Assembly: GCA_030610785.1 (NCBI GenBank)
Contig: JAUWRB010000001.1
Coordinates: 1-40,694 of the forward strand
Source of the DNA: Promethearchaeota archaeon
GTDB taxonomy: Archaea; Asgardarchaeota; Lokiarchaeia; Sigyniarchaeales; SOKP01
Reading direction: 5' to 3'
DNA length: 40,694 bases
A program made the position numbers and the translations under genes. Position 1 is the first letter of the stretch; each line of letters starts with the position of its first letter. This document shows positions 2,166-21,220 of this stretch, one piece after another. A model generated the notes under the pieces. It did not search any database and was not told the DNA's origin. It saw only the letters and a program-made list of their open reading frames with translations.

Positions 2166-2422
2166 ATTAAAAATGTAAGTTTTATTACTAATATATTTTT
2201 TAAAAAATTTACATGACTAAAAATATTTTACAATTTAAGATTAAAATAAAATTAGACTGCTTTTTTAATTAAAAAAAAAAATTAAAAATATTTTTTTAGT
2301 AAGAGCTAATTTTTTTTTCTATATACTCTTTATCAATAATCTGATACTACTTATATTTTTAGTGAAAATCGTAAAAGTGTGTGGTTATGCTATGATTATC
2401 ACATATTGAGAAGATAATCTCA

Positions 2423-3349
2423 TTAACCCCCTCCAATTTTTACAATTAATCCCTTTGATTCTAAAAATAGTTTGAATTCTTGTATTTTTTTTTTTTCAGT
2501 AAGAGGAATATTTTTTAACTCATAATTCATACCTAATCGTTCGTATTTTTTTTCAGCTAATCTGTGGTAAGGTAAAATGTGAATTTCAAGAAGAGCTAAT
2601 TTTTTCATTAATTCAGCTAGTTTCGAAAAAAAATTCATGTTATCGTTAATATTCGACACTATTGGAACTCGAATAACAATATTTTTAAATTTATTTTTTA
2701 CAAGTTTTTTTAAATTTGACAGAATAACATCATTAGTAACTCCTGTATATTTCTCATGTTCATCGCTATTTAAAAGTTTTATATCGTAATAAAGAAGATC
2801 AACATTTGGAAGGATCTTCTCAAAGTAATCCCATTTAGCGTGTCCACACGTTTCAATTACAGCATGTATTTTTTCATCTTTACATTTTTTTAAAAAATCA
2901 GCCAAAAATTCAGGTTGGTAAAAAGGTTCTCCACCAGATATTGTAATTCCCCCGCCTGAATTCTCGTAATATAGCGCGTCTTTTTTAACAATATTTAAAA
3001 TCTCGTTTATTGGCATTTTTTTCCCAATTAATTGAATAGCTTGAGCAACACAATTTTTTACACAACTTAAAGAACAATTTGGTACCACGCATTTTTCACG
3101 ATTTATTCTACTAGCTTTTTTAAATTGTATCGCATCATGCTCACAAGCAGTTAAGCATTTTTTACAGCCGATACATTTTTCCTCCAAAAAAATTATATCT
3201 TCTGTTTTTTTCCATGATTCTGGATTTTGACACCATTTGCAGCGTAAAGGACAACCTTTCAAAAAAATTAGCGTTCTAATTCCAGGACCATCATGTACGG
3301 CATAACGTTGGATATCAAAAATTAATCCTTCTAAATTTTTTTCGTTCAT
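2423..3349 (-). CDS. Glycyl-radical enzyme activating protein (radical SAM, PflA/PflC-like family with extra ferredoxin-type clusters)
   Basis: CX3CX2C radical-SAM motif (GCPLRCKWCQNPE) near the N-terminus. Two additional Cys-rich ferredoxin-like motifs (CIGCKKCLTACEHD and CVVPNCSLSCVKNC). GGEP motif (ISGGEPF). It lies 75 nt downstream of the GRE on the same strand. Confidence 0.85.
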   Translation of the reverse strand: MNEKNLEGLIFDIQRYAVHDGPGIRTLIFLKGCPLRCKWCQNPESWKKTEDIIFLEEKCIGCKKCLTACEHDAIQFKKASRINREKCVVPNCSLSCVKNCVAQAIQLIGKKMPINEILNIVKKDALYYENSGGGITISGGEPFYQPEFLADFLKKCKDEKIHAVIETCGHAKWDYFEKILPNVDLLYYDIKLLNSDEHEKYTGVTNDVILSNLKKLVKNKFKNIVIRVPIVSNINDNMNFFSKLAELMKKLALLEIHILPYHRLAEKKYERLGMNYELKNIPLTEKKKIQEFKLFLESKGLIVKIGGG

Positions 3350-3424
3350 GATTACTATAACCCTAATAAGAAAAAAAGAATTAAAAGAAAAAAATCACAT
3401 GATATTATGATTAACATTCTGTTA

Positions 3425-5806
3425 TTAGCATTCTGTTCTATTAATAATATCTTCTTGTGCCACTTTTGATAATTCTGTAAACAATACAGAATATCCCGCA
3501 ACTCTTACAACCAGATCTCTATATTCATCTGGGTTTTTTTGAGCCTCCAGTAGTATTTCTTTGCCAACAATGTTAAATTGTACTTGAAATCCCCCATTAT
3601 AATTAAAAAATGTTCGAATAAGGGCCGGAAATTTGTCTATTATTAAGGAATTAGGATGAAAAGCTAAGATAAGTGAACTTCCATTAGAAATTAATAGATG
3701 ATCAAGTTTTTTAACCGAATTTAGAACTGCTGTGGGTCCATTTTTATCCATTCCATTAGTGGGACCAAGACCATTTGAGAGGGTATCTCTAGATTTCCTT
3801 CCATTTGCTGATGCCGCTGTAAATACACCAAATGCTAAATGAAAAGTAGTCGATAAGATTCCGGGATTGAATTGACCCCCTCGATTATTTTTATGTTTTA
3901 AAATCTCAGTGCAATATGCTTTTACAACATCAACAGCAATTGAATCAACATAATCGTCATCGTTTCCATATTTTGGAACATTATTAATGAAGATTTGTCT
4001 CCATTCACTTCCTTTTTTTCCTTGATAGGATCCTCTAAAGTTTTTCATGAGCATTTGGACTAAATCTTCAAATGGAAGGAGTTTTTCTTCAAATACCATT
4101 TGTTTTATTACTGCTAGACTATCTGCCACCGTAGCTAAACCAAGTAATTGTGCTCCTGTAAAATTATATATCGCACCTCCCTTAGTAACATCAAGACCGT
4201 TTTCTATGCAATTATCTGTTGTTGCAGATAAAAATGGTTGAGGAGTAAGTTCTGCAATAGCAGTATCGAGAGTATCCATGGTTAAAACCATGTATTTTAT
4301 AAAATATTTCATTTGATTAATGTATGCCTCCCATAGATCTTCGTAAGATGCAATTTCTTTATCATATTTTACACCATAATCAACTCTTGTAAACATGTCA
4401 ATTCCGTTTGTTAACGCTAATTCTAAACACTTTACAAGATTGAGTTGATTTGCGTTTGTTGACCCATACGATTTATATGGATGTTGAGGCTCTACACATC
4501 CAATGGGCGCATATTCTCGAGCATCTTCAAGAGTAAATCCAAGATCTTCTAGACTTTTTACCATTATATCGTCATTAAATAAAGCAATGCTAGATCCTGA
4601 CTTTATTGATTCCCCAACTTTAACAATAAAATCCTCTGGAGTTTTTTCGTGAATTCGAACGGAAAAAGTGGGTTGAACTGTTTTTAGATGAGTATAAGCA
4701 TCTAACATGATATGTGATAATTCTGTCGTTGCGTCATTACCTTTACGATCAAGTCCCCCGATAGTTAGATTTTCTGAGAGCGGAGGTCCTTCAGCAGCTA
4801 TAATGCCTTTGCTAATAACATAATTCCATAACATTGTAAGTTTAATATAAAAGCATTCAATTAAAAATTGAACTTCCTCATCTGAAATCTTTCCTTCACT
4901 TTTATCTTTTAAATAATATGGATACAAATATTGGTCCAATCGGCCAATACTTACTGCGAAACCACCATCTTCTAGACCACATATTAATTGATTAAAATAA
5001 ATGAGTTGAATTGCCTCTTTAAAAGAAGTTGGCAGATTTTCGGAAATATTTCGACAAATCTCAGAAATTTCAATAAGTTCTTTTTTCCGATCAATATTGG
5101 GCTCGTTTTTTGCCTCTCCTTCAGCTAAAAGTGAAAATCGTTGAATAAAATTTTTTACGGCCGTACAAAGAATGATAACAGATTGTAAAAAAACCCTTTT
5201 TTCGGTATCCTCCAAAGAAAAATTTTTTAACCTTTTTTCAGCCTTTTGAATTAAGCCTTTTATTCCATATTTAAAAACATTTTCATGGCCTATTAGGAAA
5301 TGGCCTACACCATTAACAAGCTCTACATCAACAAGAAAAACCAATTTTTCCATCATATTTTTTATATCTGGCTTTAAATATGATTGAAACCTTGCTTGAA
5401 CGGTTTGGTCTTCGTTCTTCCAATATGGAATTAACTCTTTTTTTATATAATCTCTCTCTTCATTAGAAAGGAATAATTTTTGTACTTCACGAGAATCGTA
5501 AGAATCACAATCTTGTTCTATTGTATCGATTCGAACTTCAGGATATAAAGGGGTTCCCATATATTTTGTAGAACGGTTACCGACAATGAATTCGTTGTCC
5601 CAAATAACGATTGTCATGTTTGTTAATAAATCCTCCATGGCTTTCGCAAATCGAATAATGGGATTTTCTCCTTTTGTTTTTTTGTATGATTCTGTAAAAA
5701 ATTTAGCTCTTTCAATACATATTTCATGTGGGTGATTAATTACTTTTTTTTTCATTAATTGAGTACATTTTTTATAATTGGGCTGAGGAATTTGTTCTAA
5801 TACCAT
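3425..5806 (-). CDS. Glycyl radical enzyme, PFL2/dehydratase-like class (single active-site Cys); substrate unknown
   Basis: 793 aa. C-terminal glycyl-radical fingerprint VVRVAGYSVLF (Gly codon at complement of 3494-3496). Active-site loop PIGCVEPQHP has one Cys followed by Glu (Cys codon at complement of 4495-4497). That is typical of the glycerol/diol dehydratase, HypD and CutC-like clade rather than the Cys-Cys of true pyruvate formate-lyase. Confidence 0.85.
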   Translation of the reverse strand: MVLEQIPQPNYKKCTQLMKKKVINHPHEICIERAKFFTESYKKTKGENPIIRFAKAMEDLLTNMTIVIWDNEFIVGNRSTKYMGTPLYPEVRIDTIEQDCDSYDSREVQKLFLSNEERDYIKKELIPYWKNEDQTVQARFQSYLKPDIKNMMEKLVFLVDVELVNGVGHFLIGHENVFKYGIKGLIQKAEKRLKNFSLEDTEKRVFLQSVIILCTAVKNFIQRFSLLAEGEAKNEPNIDRKKELIEISEICRNISENLPTSFKEAIQLIYFNQLICGLEDGGFAVSIGRLDQYLYPYYLKDKSEGKISDEEVQFLIECFYIKLTMLWNYVISKGIIAAEGPPLSENLTIGGLDRKGNDATTELSHIMLDAYTHLKTVQPTFSVRIHEKTPEDFIVKVGESIKSGSSIALFNDDIMVKSLEDLGFTLEDAREYAPIGCVEPQHPYKSYGSTNANQLNLVKCLELALTNGIDMFTRVDYGVKYDKEIASYEDLWEAYINQMKYFIKYMVLTMDTLDTAIAELTPQPFLSATTDNCIENGLDVTKGGAIYNFTGAQLLGLATVADSLAVIKQMVFEEKLLPFEDLVQMLMKNFRGSYQGKKGSEWRQIFINNVPKYGNDDDYVDSIAVDVVKAYCTEILKHKNNRGGQFNPGILSTTFHLAFGVFTAASANGRKSRDTLSNGLGPTNGMDKNGPTAVLNSVKKLDHLLISNGSSLILAFHPNSLIIDKFPALIRTFFNYNGGFQVQFNIVGKEILLEAQKNPDEYRDLVVRVAGYSVLFTELSKVAQEDIINRTEC

Positions 5807-5996
5807 TTTAATACACCAAAAATTATCATTTTCGTTTAATTTGAAATTTTAAGAAAAAACTTTTTTAAATTTAATCTTTTTAAATAAAACTATCACATTA
5901 AAAGTTATATAAATTTTTATTTTAATAGGAATAATTTATTTATTAAAAGTGAAAAAATGAAGTTATATTCATTAATTTTCAAAAATTCTTAAAATA

Positions 5997-6935
5997 ATGA
6001 GCAAAGAAAATTTTTCTAAACTTTTTAAAGAACGATTAATCAAAGACCTCTCTGAAGAACAAATAGATATAGTTTTATCAGGTCAATATGGGAAAGCTTT
6101 AGAATTACTAAGAGATGCTGAAGCAACAGGCTTGTTTCCTGCATTAGTAGGTCCGCCTGGTGTTGGAAAAACAATTTTATGCAGATATTTCGCTAGTCTA
6201 AGAGCAAAGGAGAATAAAAATAAAGGTTTTTATTGGTTAACTATGGATGAGAGCATCAAACCCTCAAATTTTATTGGATCTTTTGATCCCGCGATTACTT
6301 TACAAAAAGGCTTTGTACTCGAAGCTTTTAATTCGGGACCTCTTTTAAATGCGATGCTAGAAGGTGGTACGTTTTTAGCAAATGAAATCAATAGAGCAAC
6401 AGAATATTCACAGAATACATTATTGGAGCCTTTAGAAGAAGCTTCAATTGGAATACCCCATTTAGGGCGAATTAAAGCAGATAAAGATTTTTTCTTTATT
6501 TGTGCCATGAATCCAGAGGAGCTTTCAGGGACTCATAGATTATCAGAAGCATTAAAAGATCGAATAAAAATATGGATTCAATTAACTTATCCTGAAAAAT
6601 CAACAGAGTTAGATATAATAAGAATTAACCTTCCCGAGCATTTCGAGATAGAAGAATCCGAATTAGAAATAATATATTCAATTATTGAAGAGACAAGAAA
6701 AAATAAAATAGATATAGAGGTTCCCGCTTCTGTAAGAGCTGGAATTGCTATAGCGAAATTATTGGGAAGAAGAAGGCTTTTGGAAAAAGAAAAAAAAGTA
6801 AAAGAAAAAGAATCGGTTTATGTATATCTCTCTGAAATAGCCAGATATGTCTTATTAGGCAGTATTAAACCTAAACCAGGAGTAAAAGTAGATAATATTA
6901 TAGAAAGCATTATTCATAAAACTTTAGGAGCATAA
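5997..6935 (+). CDS. MoxR-like / AAA_5-type AAA+ ATPase
   Basis: Walker A GPPGVGKT (6150-6173). Walker B region FLANEINRA (Asn at the usual Asp position, 6381-6383). Sensor-like FFFICAMNPEE. LSEALKDRI arginine-finger-like region. Size of 312 aa is typical of MoxR. Confidence 0.8.
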   Translation: MSKENFSKLFKERLIKDLSEEQIDIVLSGQYGKALELLRDAEATGLFPALVGPPGVGKTILCRYFASLRAKENKNKGFYWLTMDESIKPSNFIGSFDPAITLQKGFVLEAFNSGPLLNAMLEGGTFLANEINRATEYSQNTLLEPLEEASIGIPHLGRIKADKDFFFICAMNPEELSGTHRLSEALKDRIKIWIQLTYPEKSTELDIIRINLPEHFEIEESELEIIYSIIEETRKNKIDIEVPASVRAGIAIAKLLGRRRLLEKEKKVKEKESVYVYLSEIARYVLLGSIKPKPGVKVDNIIESIIHKTLGA

Positions 6936-6943
6936 TACCTTAA

Positions 6944-9448
6944 GTGGGTAATAATATGGGAGTTTTTCCTGAAAATCCGTGTGAATTTGCGGTTGAATTT
7001 GTTCGAAGGATGAGAAATCATCCAGATATAATTCAGATACCTTCTTCCCGTCAAGTATTATCAATACCTAAATTAATTTTATCAAGATATTATCGTAAAG
7101 GGAATCTTAAACCAATCGATTTTATAGAAATAAGCACTGTTACCTCATTTCCGGATAATCAAAAATTAGCAAAAGATATTGCTTTTGAAATTCTTTTTCC
7201 AAATTATAAGAAAGATTTAATGACTTCATTTTTTGATAAAGATCTTAAACAAAATGATATAGACCCCAATGAATTATTAAAACCTGAAGAAAAATCAGAA
7301 TTAGATCAACTTCAAGATTTAATTGATGAAATCGAAACGTCAAAATCTGTCGATATTGACACTATAAAAGATTTAGAGAAATTTTTTGAAGAATTGAACC
7401 AAAAAAGAGAAGAAGAACCATATAAATCAGCATTAAACTTCTTTGATGATGATACCGAATTGTTTAAAGAAAAAATCACCTCTTTACAAGAATTAATTGA
7501 AGAAGCACGAAAAAGAATGGAACAAAAAATAAATTCCCTTAATCCAAATGATCTAAAAGCAGGCGCTAATTTAGACTTAAATGATTTAATTCAAGAAAAA
7601 TCTCTAAGAGAGTGGGAGAAATTAGCAAGTAAAGCTCTTGCGAATCAAGATATTACTAAAGACTTGGAAAAGTTAATGAATTCCTCCAATTTTGAAGATC
7701 TAATTCAATCAATGAAATTTTTAAATGAAACAAATGCAATATCCCAAAACCAAATGGATCAATTAATACAAGATTTAAAAAAAAAAATTAATAATTTAGA
7801 CCAATTATTTAATGCTGCTAAAAATTTAGGTGAAACTCCTCAATTTAATCAAGAAAAAGTTCTTAAAAATTCTTTACAACAGCATTCGTTTGAACACAAT
7901 TTCAATTTGGCAAACTCGTTAGATCAATATTTTGGTACTAATCTTAGAGGCCAAATGTTGGAAAAATTTAATCAACAACATCAAAACGCTCAAATGAACC
8001 TCTCACTAGAAACTTTAACTAAAGCAGCGTTAGCCAATAAAGCGTGGAATGAACTTTTTAATAAATCACTTCAGAAATCTATTAAAGATGCAATGGCTCA
8101 AAATAAAAGTAATGAGGCTCTTAAATCTCTCACACATCAAATGCAACAACTCATGAACTCTTGTCAAAATATGCATTCTAGTCAAAAAATGGCTCAAAAA
8201 CTTCCTGATCTTATAAAAAAGACTTTAGAATCTTGTGAAACCCCTGAACAATTAAAAAATTCAGTAGAATTCTTAAGAAAAATTGGCCTTCAACCTGAAT
8301 CAGAAGACATTAAAACAGCAGGAAAAAAACTAGAGATGCCTGATGATCAAATTTATGAATTAATTGAACCTAATTATCAATTACTTAAAAAATTAGTTGA
8401 GAAAAAAGCATCAAATTTTGAAAGATTAGAACGTTTAATGAATCAACTTAAAGATCAATTGAATTTTGATCGAATTAAGGAATTAATGGCTAATGCACTT
8501 TCTGCCGATAATAGAGAAGCATTAGGTGCTATGGGCCATTTTGATTTAAATGCTGCGTTAAAAAGTGCTGAACAAATCGGAGGCAAAGAAGGAATGGATA
8601 AAGTTGTTGCTTCACTACAAGCGGGTAGTGGAGAAAATCTTCTTAAACAATGGTTCCTTCATCGAAATAATTTACCTATAAAAGCTAAAGCCAAAGTAAA
8701 AGAATTAGCTAAAAAAATGTTAATTGAAATGGGAATTCATTACTCAAGAGCAAGACTTGGAAGCACTGTTTCTGGACCAATTCCAATAAATTTAGTAAGA
8801 CCATATACTATTGGAGATGATTTTGATAATATAGATTTAGAAGCGACTATTTTCAATTTATTAGAAAAAGGAAAAAAATTGGAGCATATTAATTACGACG
8901 ATTTCTTTGTTAATGAAACAGCAAAGGGCTTGAGAAGTTTGTGTCTTGAGTTAGATATTTCAGGAAGCATGTCTGGAGAAAAACTTTCATCAATGGCTAT
9001 TGCAGTGACAATGATTGTCTATAGTTTAAAGAAAGATGAATTAGCAATAACTTTTTTCGAATCTGACTTACATGTATTAAAAGAAATGAAAAAAAGTGTT
9101 AATTTAGAAGAACTAGCCGATGAATTGTTATCAGTAACAGCTAAAGGCGGTACAAGAGTCCAAGGTGCTCTTGAATGGGCAAGAGAACAATTTAAACGAG
9201 CAGATTCAAGAGATAAGTTGAATATTTTATTTACTGATGCGGAACTTTACGATCTTAACGAAGCAATAGAACAACTACGAATTTTCCGGTCTATGGGCGT
9301 TCATTTTATTTTAGTTTGTCCAGGCCAGTCATATAACCTTAAAGAAGCAACAAAAATGGTAAAAATTGCAGGCGGTCAATTAATGACAGTAGATAATTGG
9401 GAAGAATTTCCAAGCATGATTTCTGATATTATTAATTCAATGTTTTGA
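6944..9448 (+). CDS. von Willebrand factor A (vWA) domain protein with a long Q/N/K/E-rich helical N-terminal region
   Basis: C-terminal vWA domain with a complete-looking MIDAS: LDISGSMSG (DxSxS, 8954-8968), TAKGGT, LFTDAE. The GTG start is 9 nt after the MoxR stop (an alternative ATG is at 6956). About 600 aa of predicted coiled-coil/low-complexity sequence lies upstream of the vWA domain. Confidence 0.75.
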   Translation: MGNNMGVFPENPCEFAVEFVRRMRNHPDIIQIPSSRQVLSIPKLILSRYYRKGNLKPIDFIEISTVTSFPDNQKLAKDIAFEILFPNYKKDLMTSFFDKDLKQNDIDPNELLKPEEKSELDQLQDLIDEIETSKSVDIDTIKDLEKFFEELNQKREEEPYKSALNFFDDDTELFKEKITSLQELIEEARKRMEQKINSLNPNDLKAGANLDLNDLIQEKSLREWEKLASKALANQDITKDLEKLMNSSNFEDLIQSMKFLNETNAISQNQMDQLIQDLKKKINNLDQLFNAAKNLGETPQFNQEKVLKNSLQQHSFEHNFNLANSLDQYFGTNLRGQMLEKFNQQHQNAQMNLSLETLTKAALANKAWNELFNKSLQKSIKDAMAQNKSNEALKSLTHQMQQLMNSCQNMHSSQKMAQKLPDLIKKTLESCETPEQLKNSVEFLRKIGLQPESEDIKTAGKKLEMPDDQIYELIEPNYQLLKKLVEKKASNFERLERLMNQLKDQLNFDRIKELMANALSADNREALGAMGHFDLNAALKSAEQIGGKEGMDKVVASLQAGSGENLLKQWFLHRNNLPIKAKAKVKELAKKMLIEMGIHYSRARLGSTVSGPIPINLVRPYTIGDDFDNIDLEATIFNLLEKGKKLEHINYDDFFVNETAKGLRSLCLELDISGSMSGEKLSSMAIAVTMIVYSLKKDELAITFFESDLHVLKEMKKSVNLEELADELLSVTAKGGTRVQGALEWAREQFKRADSRDKLNILFTDAELYDLNEAIEQLRIFRSMGVHFILVCPGQSYNLKEATKMVKIAGGQLMTVDNWEEFPSMISDIINSMF

Positions 9449-9474
9449 ACTATATAAAATCAATATAAAAAAAA

Positions 9475-11826
9475 ATGTCTTTTACATCTCTATCGGAACT
9501 ATTAATAAAAATATTTGGAGAAAAATTATATAAACAATCAGTTAAATTTCCAAATAATAAAATAAACATTATTTCAATAAAAGTAGAGCCTATAAAAATC
9601 AGAACTATAATTCTCGATAACGATCGAGAGTATCACCTCATAATTAATCAAAAGAAAGCAGAAATATTCCACGATTGCCCTAATTTTTTAATTCATTCTT
9701 CAAGGGAAGATAAAATTTGCATTCATTTCTTAAAATTATTAATATTAATTAAAAAAGAACTTGCTATTAAAATTATAGAAGAATTTGAGAAATACTCACT
9801 TACTTCAGAGGATTTTGGCTCAAAAAAGAAAAGCAAAAATTATTTATTATTAGCTAATGCTTGTTTTGAGACAAATAATTATGTTGAAGGTTTAAGTTAT
9901 TTAAGTAAGGCAATAATTAACCAAAGCGAATGTAAAGTAATTGTTGAAAAATTTTTAAGAGTAGCAATAGATAGAAATTTATTCATAGAATTTTTCGAGT
10001 TTTTAAAATCATGCCATGAAAACGAGTTAGACCAATATATAATTGAATTTAACGATGATATAGAAAAAGGGTTTAAAAAATTTCTAAATACGGTCTCTGA
10101 TTACTCATTTTTTAGTATACTTAGAATTAATAAATCACTAAATAAGATTTTCAAATTTAAAGATATTTCGTTTATTGTATCTTTAATTGACAAATTTAAT
10201 AAAATGGTAAATAGTTCCAATTTTAATGAAAGATATTTTTCTATTTATTTTATTAAAACCAATATAGAACTGTCTAAAGAATTAAATCGAGCATTTTGCG
10301 ATATAATTTCTGGAAATCAATTAGATAAATTAAAAGAGGAATTATTAATTTATTTTTTTACTGAAATCGATAATTTTTGCTTGATTGACAAATTAAAGTT
10401 ATTGAAAAAGCAATTTGACGTATTAGATATTCCTAAAGATAAATATCATGATATATATAAGAAATATAAAAATGAAATAAAAGAATTAGAAAAAAAAGTT
10501 TATCTTAAGAAATTTTCTTTTTTAAATTTATTAATGGAGAAATATAACATAAAAAGAACTAAAGGTGATTTTAGAAAAAAAAGAAACACATATTTTATAA
10601 ATCATGACCAAGAAAATTTAGAAAATCCCGTTTATAATTATATTTTATCTCGTATTGGTTTTTTTGGAATAAATGAAACAACAATTAAATCATCCGAAAT
10701 TGGAATTAATTATCTTATTATAAAAGAATTATTTTTAGATGATTTAAGCACACTACCTGATGTTTTTTACTACAAAAAACAATTTTGGGGAGAAACATGC
10801 GATTTTAAAATCAATCCTCTTAATGGTTTTTCTTTAATGAGCGAAAATATGCGTTATAATTACGAGATAGACCAAAAATATTCAAACATAAATGATTTAA
10901 TGATTATAGAATGGGATTTAGCAAATAAACCAATTCAAGGATGCCTCGTTAATGCATATGGTTCTCAAATAATCATACCTGATCCAAATAACCCTCTTTT
11001 TGACGATTTAAAACCATTTGATACATGTTATTGTATTAGAACTCCTGTAAAAATCGAAGGAAATAACGTGAAAACAATTAATGTTTTAACCAAATGTTCT
11101 TTTAAAGATGTGATTAAAAGTATTTCTAAAGGAATGACCTTCATAGAAGGCTTTTATCCTTTTTCTCTGATAAGAGCCGTATTAGATAAAGAAATAAGTC
11201 CATTTGAAGCCAATGAAATTGTTGTAAATAATCCAAATAAAATATTTATTCCTAATTATAACAAGTTTGTTGAAACTTTCAGAAATTTTCTATTTAAATT
11301 CATTCATAAAGAAAAGGATTATATTTTCGAAGAAATGAAGAATAATCCCGGGAAAAAAATTAATCAAATTTTAATTTTAATGAATTTGTTGAACGAATTA
11401 TCTGGATTGAATTTACCATTTTTAGAAATAACTGAAAAATTATTTAATCAAAATATTAATCTGAATGAATTCAAATTAAAATTTCTAAGCGAAATACATT
11501 CATGCATAAAAAAAATACTTAATAAACGAGAAATGGGCAGTACTATTATTTTTAACTTAAAAAAGCTTCGTAACACGCCTTTTTTTAAATACTCTAATCA
11601 AATTCTTGAAATTAGAAAATCAGAGTTTGAATCTATAAAGGTTTATAAATTTAAAGATATACATAATGTTTCAGAACTTCAAAAAACTTATTATGGCAAG
11701 CAATTTTTAAAAATTCTAAATGTAGGTTTAAACCCAACTGTTAAACCTGATGTTTTTAAAAAAATTTCTGATTTTGCCACTAAATTAAAACTTAATTTGA
11801 ATGTCATAAAATCTGAATTTACTTGA
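9475..11826 (+). CDS. Large uncharacterised protein with an N-terminal SWIM-like zinc-finger motif
   Basis: The segment EYHLIINQKKAEIFHDCPNFLIHSSREDKICIHFLKLL (H66..H84, nt 9670-9726) matches the SWIM pattern CxCPxF...x(n)...CxH, with the first Cys replaced by His. The rest (~690 aa) is K/N/I-rich with no motif I recognise. It lies 26 nt downstream of the vWA gene. Confidence 0.45.
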   Translation: MSFTSLSELLIKIFGEKLYKQSVKFPNNKINIISIKVEPIKIRTIILDNDREYHLIINQKKAEIFHDCPNFLIHSSREDKICIHFLKLLILIKKELAIKIIEEFEKYSLTSEDFGSKKKSKNYLLLANACFETNNYVEGLSYLSKAIINQSECKVIVEKFLRVAIDRNLFIEFFEFLKSCHENELDQYIIEFNDDIEKGFKKFLNTVSDYSFFSILRINKSLNKIFKFKDISFIVSLIDKFNKMVNSSNFNERYFSIYFIKTNIELSKELNRAFCDIISGNQLDKLKEELLIYFFTEIDNFCLIDKLKLLKKQFDVLDIPKDKYHDIYKKYKNEIKELEKKVYLKKFSFLNLLMEKYNIKRTKGDFRKKRNTYFINHDQENLENPVYNYILSRIGFFGINETTIKSSEIGINYLIIKELFLDDLSTLPDVFYYKKQFWGETCDFKINPLNGFSLMSENMRYNYEIDQKYSNINDLMIIEWDLANKPIQGCLVNAYGSQIIIPDPNNPLFDDLKPFDTCYCIRTPVKIEGNNVKTINVLTKCSFKDVIKSISKGMTFIEGFYPFSLIRAVLDKEISPFEANEIVVNNPNKIFIPNYNKFVETFRNFLFKFIHKEKDYIFEEMKNNPGKKINQILILMNLLNELSGLNLPFLEITEKLFNQNINLNEFKLKFLSEIHSCIKKILNKREMGSTIIFNLKKLRNTPFFKYSNQILEIRKSEFESIKVYKFKDIHNVSELQKTYYGKQFLKILNVGLNPTVKPDVFKKISDFATKLKLNLNVIKSEFT

Positions 11827-17797: not shown

Positions 17798-20700
17798 GTG
17801 CCAAAAGTGACAACCAACGATGAGGGAAAGATTAAGCAAGGCACAATAGCTCAATTCATGCGTAAAAGAACACAATTAGTGGGCTTTGAATTTGGACATT
17901 GGAAACACACGCAATATTGTGCAGAGTTTTTAGACAATGCCCTTGATGCGATAGAATCTTTCCAATGGATGGAATTAAATAAAAAAGATTCTAAAATAAT
18001 GTTCTCCTTGGATCAAGATCTATTTTTAGGCAGTTTAACAATTCTAAAAAATGAAAAACAACTTGAAAAATCTCTACCATTAAGTAATGAAGGAAAACGT
18101 ACATTAATGCTTGAATTAGGTATAGAACAATTCGAATTAAAAGAATCTGAAACCCATTTAATTGAAGAAAAGGAAGAAAAATCTCAAAAAGTAGTTGATA
18201 AAAAACATGAGGAAGTTGAAGAGGAAGTAAAAAAAATAATCAATGATCTGGAAGAACTTATCAAGCCTGTAGAATATATCATTGATCTTGAACCAATTGC
18301 TATTATTAGATTAAGTGAATCTGAAGCAGCATCGTTTTTAACATCAGAATTAAGTCAAAAAAATATCATGAATTATGCTTTTGAAATTTTTGATAACGGC
18401 ACGGGGATGTTGAAAGTAGATTTTAAAAAGTTTGGAAAGTATCTTGCTTCCAGTAAAAGCATTGAATTAAAACAAACAAGAGGTAGTCAAGGATTTGGCG
18501 CGCCGAGTGCTTTCAGTGATGCACAAAACACAACTGGAAGGCCTATTATAGCAATTTCAAAATCAGCAGAAAATATTTACGCTACAGTTTCAGAATTTTT
18601 TACAACATCAAAAAATGAAAAAAAATATATCGTTTACCCTACCGATGTCGATTGCCCATTTCTCCATGGAACTTATATTAAATTAAATTATTTAAATGTA
18701 AAATATATCCGGGGGTATGTGGACAAATTTATAGAAGAAACAGCCTATATGAATCCGCACATTACGCTTATCTATATAGATCCTAACGGTGAGGAAACTA
18801 TTTACAAAAGATTAGTTTCTTCGTTTCCAAAAGAACCCAAATTTGCTAAACCACATCCTTCATCAATAAATATAGGCGATCTACAAGATTTATTAGCAAA
18901 ATCCGAAATTAACTCTCTTTCTTCGTTTTTAAAAGAAAATTTTGTAAGAATTAGTTCAAAAATTGCTCAAAAAATTATTGACCTTGCGTCAAAAGATTTA
19001 CAAGATAATTTAAATTTCTTAATTCTTAAAAACGGCTTTATAAATAAAATATCAAAAAAAAGCGATCTTATTTATTTACTTTGCTATGAAAAAAGAATTT
19101 TTGGAAAGTCCAAAAAACCCAGAGACAAATTAATAATTTATAAAGTTGACTCAGAAGATTTGAAAAATAAATATTGGGAATTAATCTTAAATTATAATCA
19201 ATTTAAAGAAAATCACAAAAAAATTAACAATGATATAAAAAAATTTAATTACCGTGTGGAAAAATCTAAAACTTTAAAGGAAATTAAATTTATTGAAAAA
19301 GAAATAAAAAATCTATTAATAAAAATCGATGAAATTAGAAAAGAAAAAGAAATAATAAAAATTAAATTAGAAAAAGTTTTTGAAAATGTTAATGAAGGTT
19401 TAATTGAATTAAAAAAAATTAAAAAAAGAACTGATTTTGAAGATTTAGTTAACGAGGTTGAAATTTCTAAAGCTAAACCAATAGATTTAACGAAAAATCA
19501 ATATAACTCGCTTTTCCTAGCATTTAAATCGATAAAATATATGACTCCTCCTACAGATACAGCTATTCCCGTAGGTGATACTGTATTAGAAAATACGTTA
19601 ATAAAAGAAATAGGATTAAAAATCTCAGAAAATATTGAAGATTTCGCAGCACCCGTGGATGATATTTATAAAATAATTGATATTATACGCGATGAAAAGA
19701 AAAATGCTATAATACGCGAAGATCCAACTGTTAATGATTTAATTTTAAACAAAATCTCAGTAAGTTCTGAAGAAATCATCGATTTAAATTCTAAAATTTT
19801 AACTAATATCGATCTCATGGATAAAAATGTTAATATAAACGAATTTAAACAATCTGTAGAAAAAATTCTTACATTTTCAGAAGAAGAACTTAAAGATAAT
19901 TATAATGATGTGTTTGAATTTTTTTTAATAAATTATACTAAAGACGATGATTTTGTATCAGCTGAAACGAGACCTCCAACGAGCGGTAAAGGTTTAGCCT
20001 ATGTTGTAGAAGCCGTCTTAGCATATTCAAAAAATCTCGGAACCCCTAAACGCGCTCGGGATGTATTAAGCAGATTTGTTAATAGAACCCCAAAATTAAG
20101 AGATACTGCTGACTGCGCAATTACAAAGGCAGTTCAGTCGGTTAATTGGAAGAATTATAAGTTAGAAACTTATGATAATAATTTACCAAAAGGCCCTATA
20201 AAACTTCTGGTAAATGTTTCTGGACCGTTTGTCCATTTAATGTTTAAATCACAATCTAAAAGTGCTTTAGCTGATGATGAAAATTTAATAAAAGAAATAA
20301 AATTTTGTCTTGAAGCAATTGGAAGAAAGTTGAGAATCTTTCTTAATAGAAAAGCAAATATGTATAAAAGCGAAAAGAGAGCAAGTTTAATTGAAAAACA
20401 CATTCCACAATTTATCAAAAGCGTGTATAACATAGCTTCAAGAGGTGAAAGCATATATAAAGCACGTGTTAACGAAAAAGAATTAATAGATTTAATGAAA
20501 AAAGCTATAGGACAAAAGCCTCCTTCGTTTATTAAAAGAGAAATATCACAGGAACCACCTGAAATTGCATCTCCTAAACCAATAGAAATAAAGGAGGAAT
20601 ATGTTAAGAAAGAAGATCTCCAAAAAAAAGAATTTGCCGTTAAAAAAGAGAAAATAATACCAAAGAAAGAACCAGTTGTTAAGAAACCTGAACCCGATAA

Positions 20701-21220
20701 AGAATTCATTTCAGTTAAAACGCTCAATAATTATACCGTAAAAGAGCTAAAAGAATATTGTAACGAGAAAAAAATAAAAATACATTCAAAAATAACTAAA
20801 GTAAATGTTATAAAGAAAATTTCAGAATCATTCGAGAAAAAGTCAAAATTAGAAATCGTGAAAGAACCGATAAGACCTTTGCCAGTCACATCAAGGGCCA
20901 TTTCAGTAAAGAAACAACAATTAAAAATAGCAAAAATAAAAGCTCCGGCATCAACTAAGCCAAAACCCTCTCCGAAACCTCGTGTTACTCCTCCAAAACC
21001 AAAAACAACTCAAACTCAATTACCTATAATTACAACAGAAAGAATTTTAGAAGTATTATCAAAAGAAGAATGGCAAGCAATTACTCACCTCATTTTTAAA
21101 TTAAAAATTAAAGATATGATGGATGCTAGGTTTTTACAAATTAAATTAAAAGAATTATTAAGGAAAGGATTAGTTTTAGAAAATACAATTAAAACTAAAA
21201 AACACTGGAAATTAAAATAA
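17798..21220 (+). CDS. top6B: DNA topoisomerase VI subunit B, unusually long (1140 aa) with insertions and a C-terminal extension
   Basis: GTG start. N-terminal strap IAQFMRKRTQLVGF. Bergerat-fold N box EFLDNALDA (E43/N47/D50). G1 box FDNGTGM (D199). G2-like TRGSQGFGAPSA. YMNPHITLIYIDPNGE. H2TH segment KPHPSSINIGDLQDLL. PPTDTAIPVGD. Transducer motifs ETRPPTSGKGLAYVVEAVLAY, SRFVNRTPKLRD, NWKNYKL and KSQSKSA. Confidence 0.85.
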   Translation: MPKVTTNDEGKIKQGTIAQFMRKRTQLVGFEFGHWKHTQYCAEFLDNALDAIESFQWMELNKKDSKIMFSLDQDLFLGSLTILKNEKQLEKSLPLSNEGKRTLMLELGIEQFELKESETHLIEEKEEKSQKVVDKKHEEVEEEVKKIINDLEELIKPVEYIIDLEPIAIIRLSESEAASFLTSELSQKNIMNYAFEIFDNGTGMLKVDFKKFGKYLASSKSIELKQTRGSQGFGAPSAFSDAQNTTGRPIIAISKSAENIYATVSEFFTTSKNEKKYIVYPTDVDCPFLHGTYIKLNYLNVKYIRGYVDKFIEETAYMNPHITLIYIDPNGEETIYKRLVSSFPKEPKFAKPHPSSINIGDLQDLLAKSEINSLSSFLKENFVRISSKIAQKIIDLASKDLQDNLNFLILKNGFINKISKKSDLIYLLCYEKRIFGKSKKPRDKLIIYKVDSEDLKNKYWELILNYNQFKENHKKINNDIKKFNYRVEKSKTLKEIKFIEKEIKNLLIKIDEIRKEKEIIKIKLEKVFENVNEGLIELKKIKKRTDFEDLVNEVEISKAKPIDLTKNQYNSLFLAFKSIKYMTPPTDTAIPVGDTVLENTLIKEIGLKISENIEDFAAPVDDIYKIIDIIRDEKKNAIIREDPTVNDLILNKISVSSEEIIDLNSKILTNIDLMDKNVNINEFKQSVEKILTFSEEELKDNYNDVFEFFLINYTKDDDFVSAETRPPTSGKGLAYVVEAVLAYSKNLGTPKRARDVLSRFVNRTPKLRDTADCAITKAVQSVNWKNYKLETYDNNLPKGPIKLLVNVSGPFVHLMFKSQSKSALADDENLIKEIKFCLEAIGRKLRIFLNRKANMYKSEKRASLIEKHIPQFIKSVYNIASRGESIYKARVNEKELIDLMKKAIGQKPPSFIKREISQEPPEIASPKPIEIKEEYVKKEDLQKKEFAVKKEKIIPKKEPVVKKPEPDKEFISVKTLNNYTVKELKEYCNEKKIKIHSKITKVNVIKKISESFEKKSKLEIVKEPIRPLPVTSRAISVKKQQLKIAKIKAPASTKPKPSPKPRVTPPKPKTTQTQLPIITTERILEVLSKEEWQAITHLIFKLKIKDMMDARFLQIKLKELLRKGLVLENTIKTKKHWKLK

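Follow-up and report, generated by a model that had tools for sequence, protein, structure and literature searches.

We analyzed three adjacent genes at positions 5997 to 11826 of a 40,694-nucleotide stretch of DNA from a Promethearchaeota archaeon of the Lokiarchaeia (contig JAUWRB010000001.1, positions 1 to 40,694, referred to here as the window). By analogy with known partnerships between MoxR ATPases and von Willebrand factor A (vWA) proteins, we consider it probable that these genes are one operon for a dedicated three-subunit Asgard remodeling machine of the MoxR type, in which the third protein would be the specificity subunit, and that this machine most likely serves a housekeeping role on a client encoded elsewhere. 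Recomputing the open reading frames (ORFs) from the sequence places all three genes on the + strand: a MoxR-class AAA+ ATPase of 312 amino acids at 5997-6935 (P0001, matched by Pfam AAA_5 and AAA_3), a vWA adaptor at 6944-9448 (P0002, 834 amino acids from a GTG at 6944 or 830 from an ATG at 6956), and a third, multidomain subunit of 783 amino acids from an undescribed family at 9475-11826 (P0003). The gaps between them are 8 nucleotides from the ATPase gene to the GTG start of the vWA gene (8 to 20, depending on the vWA start chosen) and 26 nucleotides from the vWA gene to the third gene. A first-pass annotation, made from the letters of the window, had described three codirectional ORFs with just these spacings, and its coordinates were exact.

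Comparative sequence evidence shows that the three genes form one conserved unit. The conclusion draws on four independent lines: the gene order at orthologous loci, a paralogous triad, distant triads, and triads in other families. Our ortholog survey covered 80 loci, all from Asgard (Promethearchaeota) metagenome-assembled genomes (MAGs) save a few unlabeled ones and one evident mislabel; the loci related to the window come nearly all from such MAGs, chiefly of the Lokiarchaeia. In 68 of the 71 orthologous loci where this could be judged, the third gene is immediately preceded by the vWA gene, and the ATPase gene lies upstream of the vWA gene in 64 of 65. The first-pass annotation had named beforehand, as a check on the module, whether the genes stay together in related genomes, and they do. 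The orthologous triad stands in stable synteny with coaBC, topoisomerase VI (topo VI), and lysX genes, and among the family f1 genomes listed with a match, at least 60 of 69 carry a full-length copy. Elsewhere in the same genomes there is a paralogous triad with the same gene order, whose proteins are 55% (ATPase), 35% (vWA), and 24% (third protein) identical to the orthologous ones and whose flanks are unrelated.

More remote relatives show the same arrangement. For the third protein, five distant relatives were looked up, and all five are encoded in ATPase-vWA-third triads with 2- to 30-nucleotide spacing, among differing neighbors and at GC contents of 35 to 56%; two of them lie on contigs labeled Thorarchaeota. 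Triads were also found in two complete genomes of the sister family f2 and in one genome of family f9, where the third protein exceeds 1,354 amino acids and contains HEAT repeats. Altogether, the distant triads in unrelated contexts number eight, the two labeled Thorarchaeota, the two of f2, and the one of f9 among them. No extra partner gene recurs consistently beside the paralogous and distant triads. Median identity among orthologous loci is 86% for the ATPase, 67% for the vWA protein, and 60% for the third protein, and between classes the ATPase and the vWA protein align over their full length, the third protein only at its zinc knuckle and central motif. The third subunit evolves fastest of the three, and it is always coencoded with its partners.

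Two further observations concern the makeup of related loci. A third, divergent pair of vWA and zinc-knuckle genes (43% and 33% identity), at 2237-8945 of locus L028 (G006:C351), is preceded by a gene of the thermosome/Cpn60 family rather than by a MoxR ATPase gene and is followed by a leucine-rich repeat (LRR) protein. Between the vWA and third genes, 1.6 to 2.4 kb of extra DNA is present in L015 (G024:C6, 10936-13335) and L019 (G002:C69, 7691-9285), which may represent insertions.

P0001 is a MoxR-class AAA+ ATPase, as the first reading of the sequence had it, scoring above the Pfam cutoffs with 60 bits for AAA_5 (cutoff, 22 bits; E value, 3e-16) and 49.4 bits for AAA_3 (cutoff, 27 bits; E value, 5e-13). 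Its Walker A motif, GPPGVGKT, is encoded at 6150-6173 (+ strand), and its Walker B motif, FLANE, at 6372-6386 (+ strand), with Asn129 in place of the usual Asp; the other motifs are the catalytic E130, the sensor-1 residue N172, the arginine finger R189, and the sensor-2 residue R247. In an alignment of 13 diverse triads, the Walker A motif, E130, N172, R189, R247, and Asn129 are all invariant, and the Walker B Asn is also found in triads whose ATPase is only 41 to 56% identical. Given that it is present in every member, distant triads included, this Asn appears to be a selected family signature rather than a product of decay. A profile built from the 13 diverse members and searched against the PDB found the MoxR structure 2r44 as its best single-domain sequence match (63.8 bits), compared with 31 bits for NorQ and 28 bits for CbbQ. 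The protein fits no curated subfamily: the NCBIfam model for GvpN (TIGR02640) gives 64.4 bits against a cutoff of 266.8 bits, and a Pfam scan found no CbbQ_C domain in it. With GvpN far under its cutoff and CbbQ_C unmatched, membership in the CGN subfamily (CbbQ/GvpN/NorQ) was rejected. Between genera of family f1, the ATPase is 78 to 89% identical.

Some related ATPase genes carry additional sequence. The ATPases of the paralogous triads (L029-L032) have an N-terminal extension of about 70 amino acids rich in Lys and Pro (MAKKP...KK), which the window ATPase lacks. In two orthologous loci, L025 (G007:C179, around 2096-2124) and L022 (G014:C145), a 29-nucleotide insertion directly follows the Gly94 codon of the ATPase gene, at a point equivalent to about 6278 in the window, where the gene is uninterrupted. 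Since 29 is not divisible by three, the insertion would shift the reading frame unless it is removed. It forms a hairpin, its two copies differ by compensatory changes, and it may be an mRNA intron of the bulge-helix-bulge (BHB) type.

For the adaptor P0002, the ATG at 6956 (830 amino acids) is the more likely start, given that nearly all orthologs begin with MG(V/I)FPENP and that a GTGGGT stretch lies 8 nucleotides upstream; the length of 834 amino acids first assigned to the protein holds from the GTG at 6944. The chain comprises a conserved N-terminal helical domain (residues 12 to 84), an acidic disordered linker (residues 89 to 137), a helical solenoid (residues 138 to 605), and a vWA domain with a complete MIDAS, or metal ion-dependent adhesion site (residues 613 to 834, encoded at 8780-9448, + strand). 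The AlphaFold2 model has a mean predicted local distance difference test score (pLDDT) of 81.7, with disorder confined to residues 89 to 137. Residues 670 to 825 match Pfam VWA_2 (37 bits; cutoff, 27 bits) and VWA (33.9 bits; cutoff, 23.8 bits), and P0002 comes just under the cutoff of VWA_CoxE (26.1 against 26.4 bits), a family (PF05762) that appears in the precomputed lists of many orthologs. Outside this C-terminal domain, no Pfam domain was matched. The MIDAS residues are D671-x-S673-x-S675 (8954-8968), T737 (9152-9154), and D765 (9236-9238), all on the + strand, and the five are invariant in an alignment (A3) of 21 orthologs and paralogs.

For the vWA domain of P0002, a Foldseek search of the PDB gave NorD, in the NorQD complexes 9qhe, 9qhg, and 9qh8, as the best match (E values of 1.5e-6 to 7.5e-6), along with the MIDAS domains of Rea1 (6qt8; E value, 4e-6) and MDN1 (8ql1; E value, 3e-5). 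The Foldseek probability was 1.00 for NorD, the Rea1 MIDAS domain, the A1 domain of von Willebrand factor, and integrin I domains alike, and the alignments with NorD and Rea1/MDN1, at about 250 to 290 columns, were longer than those with plain vWA domains. The domain also has a highly conserved N-terminal extension (residues 611 to 660) and a conserved hydrophobic C terminus. Pfam, Foldseek, and the five invariant residues thus agree with the earlier description of a C-terminal vWA domain with a full MIDAS. The same description had read hundreds of residues in both large partners as low-complexity sequence, and on this point it did not hold, as AlphaFold2 predicts well-folded alpha-solenoids in the two (mean pLDDT, 82 to 85).

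P0003 is a multidomain scaffold of an undescribed family. It has no match among the models of Pfam, NCBIfam, and PADLOC, nor in the PDB by sequence, and a fold search of the PDB and BFVD returned nothing significant, the matches being to TPR, SNAP, and HEAT-type solenoids at E values of at least 0.36. Its AlphaFold2 model has a mean pLDDT of 85.1. A hidden Markov model (HMM) of the third-protein family, searched against 1.84 billion representatives, yielded only 209 matches, with about 20 clusters of full length, and all matches with a named source are from Asgard archaea.

The N terminus of P0003 (residues 1 to 110, 9475-9804, + strand) combines a beta-sheet with a SWIM-like zinc knuckle, whose presumed zinc ligands H66, C68, C82, and H84 (9670-9726, + strand) are invariant in 20 orthologous and paralogous sequences and in the distant triads. 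The first-pass annotation had correctly pointed out this SWIM-like HxC...CxH motif. The knuckle reads H-x-C-x13-C-x-H, in which the first Cys of the canonical SWIM pattern, C-x-C...C-x-H, is replaced by His. In the model, four strands (residues 30 to 66) precede the knuckle and a helix begins at residue 83, and this predicted order of strands and helix is in agreement with the SWIM pattern. The Pfam SWIM profile (PF04434; gathering threshold, 19.6 bits) does not match P0003 even at an E value of 10 or less; it matches 3 of 20 relatives weakly (best E value, 1e-3), and two distant relatives are borderline (P0308 with 17.3 bits and P0341 with 19.9 bits).

The knuckle module is followed, according to the secondary structure of the model, by a TPR-like alpha-solenoid (residues 116 to 356, 9820-10542, + strand), and then by a central alpha/beta domain (residues 360 to 560, 10552-11154, + strand) with the motif E479-W480-D-L...P502-D503...P514-F515-D. 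The columns of this EWDL...PD...PFD motif are invariant in the family alignment (A1), and besides the N terminus, only this domain still aligns with the distant triads. Partial matches in the HMM search outline a C-terminal helical module of about 150 amino acids (residues ~630 to 780, 11362-11814, + strand).

Both ends of P0003 have relatives in other proteins. The C-terminal module, which matches no Pfam model, is a mobile domain: other proteins retrieved by that HMM search join it to LRR repeats, to Ras/Roc GTPase domains, or to HEAT repeats (P0331, P0332, P0353, P0357, P0364, P0377, P0379, P0333, P0390, and P0354), and this recurrence gives it the appearance of a shared interaction module. 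The beta-sheet and HxC...CxH module also occurs alone, in proteins of about 200 to 230 amino acids. One of these, a 226-amino-acid protein in whose C-terminal half the module lies, is encoded in G000:C222 (L141, 5801-6481, - strand; also L142 and L143) between orc1/cdc6 and the genes for the DP1 and DP2 subunits of DNA polymerase D (PolD). It keeps this position in the window genome and also in a second genus, at 57% identity, and a second family, at 27% identity, and it may be an unrecognized replication-cluster protein.

The closest structural precedent for the ATPase and its adaptor is provided by NorQ-NorD and its homolog CbbQ-CbbO, in which, as here, a small MoxR ATPase is followed by a protein of 600 to 900 amino acids with an N-terminal domain, a linker, and a C-terminal vWA domain with a full MIDAS. 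NorD comprises an N-terminal domain, a linker, a vWA domain with a finger, and a C-terminal contact; the finger inserts into the pore of the ATPase, and the C terminus holds the post-sensor-1 loop, in what is described as a "finger-in-pore" twisting mechanism (PMC13036017). Not only is NorD the best fold match of the P0002 vWA domain (E value, 1.5e-6), but the conserved extension at the start of that domain and the conserved C terminus also sit where NorD has its pore finger and its ring contact. By analogy with these pairs, P0001 would form a hexameric ring on which the vWA domain of the 830-amino-acid adaptor docks, making contact through the extension and the hydrophobic C terminus, while the Mg2+ of the MIDAS would grip an acidic residue of the client. 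P0003 would then act as the specificity subunit, either as a scaffold that recruits the client or as the regulated client itself.

The triad also departs from these pairs, in that P0001 falls outside the CGN subfamily and is closer to 2r44 than to NorQ or CbbQ, its Walker B motif ends in N-E and not D-E, an obligatory third subunit is present that has no counterpart there, and no client gene such as those for nitric oxide reductase (NOR) or Rubisco lies near the Asgard triad. By analogy, then, the triad resembles a remodeler of the NorQD/CbbQO type, to which a dedicated scaffold subunit would be the new element.

The combination of genes is also known from the E. coli yehLMPQ cluster, as the first-pass annotation had noted, and here the comparison is valid for architecture only. 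According to RefSeq and Pfam, YehL is an AAA_5-type MoxR ATPase, YehP has a vWA domain of the VWA_CoxE type, and YehQ has an N-terminal SWIM knuckle at residues 56 to 88, nearly the same position as in P0003 (residues 66 to 84). The Walker B Asp is missing in YehL as well, where the motif reads E-E. However, the E. coli cluster has four genes instead of three, and only there is DUF5682 (YehM) found: Pfam gave no match to this domain in P0001 to P0003, and the triad cluster holds no such gene. BLAST between P0002 and YehM was negative, with no match to YehM in the first 610 residues of P0002. YehL is only 21 to 26% identical to P0001, and YehQ has a canonical C-x-C...C-x-H knuckle, unlike P0003. 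Homology between P0003 and YehQ was considered and rejected, as hhalign of alignment A1 against the YehQ family (A4) gave a probability of 0.09% over 5 columns and BLAST gave an E value of 16. Literature searches on MoxR with vWA and SWIM, YehL/P/Q, Asgard MoxR proteins, and DUF5682/YehM returned nothing on the Asgard triad.

We favor a housekeeping machine, one that would assemble or remodel a client whose gene lies elsewhere in the genome, given that the triad is near-universal in the listed f1 genomes, lies in a stable context of core genes, and contains no effector domain; a defense system or a helper of the neighboring glycyl radical enzyme (GRE) appears unlikely. Several points weigh against our proposal. 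The putative "finger" and C-terminal contact of P0002 are assigned from position and conservation alone, and residues 613 to 660 of the model form a strand-loop-helix-strand arrangement with no obvious hairpin finger. The replacement of the Walker B Asp by Asn throughout the family means that the kinetics of the ATPase may be unusual. In addition, the fast evolution of the third subunit, the existence of paralogs, and the module in common with LRR/Roc proteins would also fit a conflict or signaling system. As for the client, the hints at hand, namely the orc1/PolD-linked knuckle protein and the Lys/Pro-rich ATPase tails, point weakly and loosely to nucleic acid-associated targets.

These hints are the starting point for an explanation that is compatible with a remodeling machine but to which we give only a small chance, that the zinc-knuckle module targets the MoxR-vWA motor to DNA, chromatin, the replisome, or repair proteins. 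In its favor are the occurrence of the beta-sheet and HxC...CxH module in the protein whose gene lies between orc1/cdc6 and those for PolD DP1/DP2, the Lys/Pro-rich tail of about 70 amino acids on the paralogous ATPase subunits, and the synteny of the orthologous triad with topo VI and often also with a PHP-domain gene. SWIM itself was reportedly first described by Makarova, Aravind, and Koonin in 2002, in SWI2/SNF2 ATPases and MuDR transposases, with predicted binding to DNA or protein. All of this support is indirect, however: SWIM-type knuckles can mediate protein-protein contacts too, the synteny with topo VI is gone at the paralogous and distant triads, and neither a recognized DNA-binding domain nor a fold match to nucleic acid-binding proteins in the PDB and BFVD was found.

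An NTP-dependent conflict or signaling system, with P0003 as the sensor or effector scaffold, seems to us quite improbable; the first-pass annotation had mentioned proposals of vWA-MoxR-centered systems of this kind. The vWA-MoxR-VMAP ternary conflict systems were reportedly proposed, from comparative genomics, by Kaur, Burroughs, Iyer, and Aravind. The systems are named under this term in PMC10910872, and like the triad they have three components, MoxR, vWA, and a variable third protein. A third component that diverges far faster than the ATPase, a second, paralogous copy in many genomes, and a C-terminal module in common with LRR, Ras/Roc, and HEAT proteins would all fit such a system, as would the weak bpMoxR matches that the precomputed Pfam results give for two ATPases from distant triads. 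Nevertheless, a Pfam scan of P0001 to P0003 found no VMAP, bpMoxR, EAD, or effector domain (nuclease, protease, TIR, etc.), and PADLOC had no match for P0002 and P0003 and only marginal, generic P-loop matches (E values of at least 0.003) for P0001. Moreover, the orthologous triad is stable and near-universal in family f1, where its ATPase is so highly conserved across genera, it keeps its place in the synteny of the core genome, and no mobile-element or defense-island context was seen among the loci examined.

A further reading, which we regard as a long shot, is that the triad is an Asgard AAA+/MIDAS machine acting on a large nucleoprotein assembly, namely the replisome, chromatin, or, as eukaryotic Rea1/midasin does, ribosome precursors, with the zinc-knuckle scaffold as its docking subunit. 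Rea1/midasin has AAA_5-type modules, its MIDAS fold is among the best matches of the P0002 vWA domain, and a long helical linker with an acidic segment is part of the functional unit of the motor there, as in the adaptor here. In contrast to the triad, it is a single chain of about 4,900 amino acids with six fused AAA modules. A specific kinship with midasin was rejected, as the profile match at an E value of 1e-38 is the sum of six domain matches of 4.5 to 28 bits each; with every midasin module weaker than the MoxR structure 2r44 (64 bits), there is no specific midasin affinity. If the triad did act on such an assembly, it would correspond, in prokaryotes and with its parts on separate genes, to an AAA-MIDAS remodeler of the eukaryotic type.

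The earlier idea that the module matures or repairs the divergently transcribed GRE is very improbable: metallo- or redox-enzyme maturation is common for MoxR-vWA pairs, of the 46 orthologous loci that could be tested, 36 have a divergent GRE gene within 1.5 kb of the ATPase gene, and a radical S-adenosylmethionine (radical-SAM) gene lies upstream of two of four paralogous triads, but the GRE is missing at the other 10 loci, none of the paralogous or distant triads has one beside it, its adjacency is a family-level synteny like that seen on the opposite flank with coaBC and topo VI, the window GRE already has an adjoining radical-SAM activase gene of its own (2423-3349), and GREs are not known to have a metal site that requires insertion.

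The window genome is 79% complete and has a GC content of about 30%, and the GRE gene diverges from the ATPase gene across a 190-bp spacer. The window is archaeal by its gene content, which includes topo VI genes, lysX-type genes, and an intron-bearing tRNA. The last corresponds to a 102-nucleotide Rfam tRNA match (47.5 bits) at 2064-2165 on the - strand, which ARAGORN missed, a combination that fits an intron-containing tRNA. The Top6B homolog at 17798-21220 has 1,140 amino acids, about twice the usual length, and its orthologs in related loci are similarly long.

Few AAA+ systems are as poorly understood as the MoxR-vWA pairs, for which only a handful of clients are known (NOR, Rubisco, carbon monoxide dehydrogenase [CODH], Frd/Nuo, and chelatases). 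Asgard archaea are the closest prokaryotic relatives of eukaryotes, and in the triad they have a conserved, apparently core module whose third subunit has a fold that matches nothing solved. Finding the client of this module would give the MoxR class a further function and would reveal what a three-subunit version does beyond the two-subunit ones; it might also bring to light an assembly or genome maintenance pathway specific to Asgard archaea.

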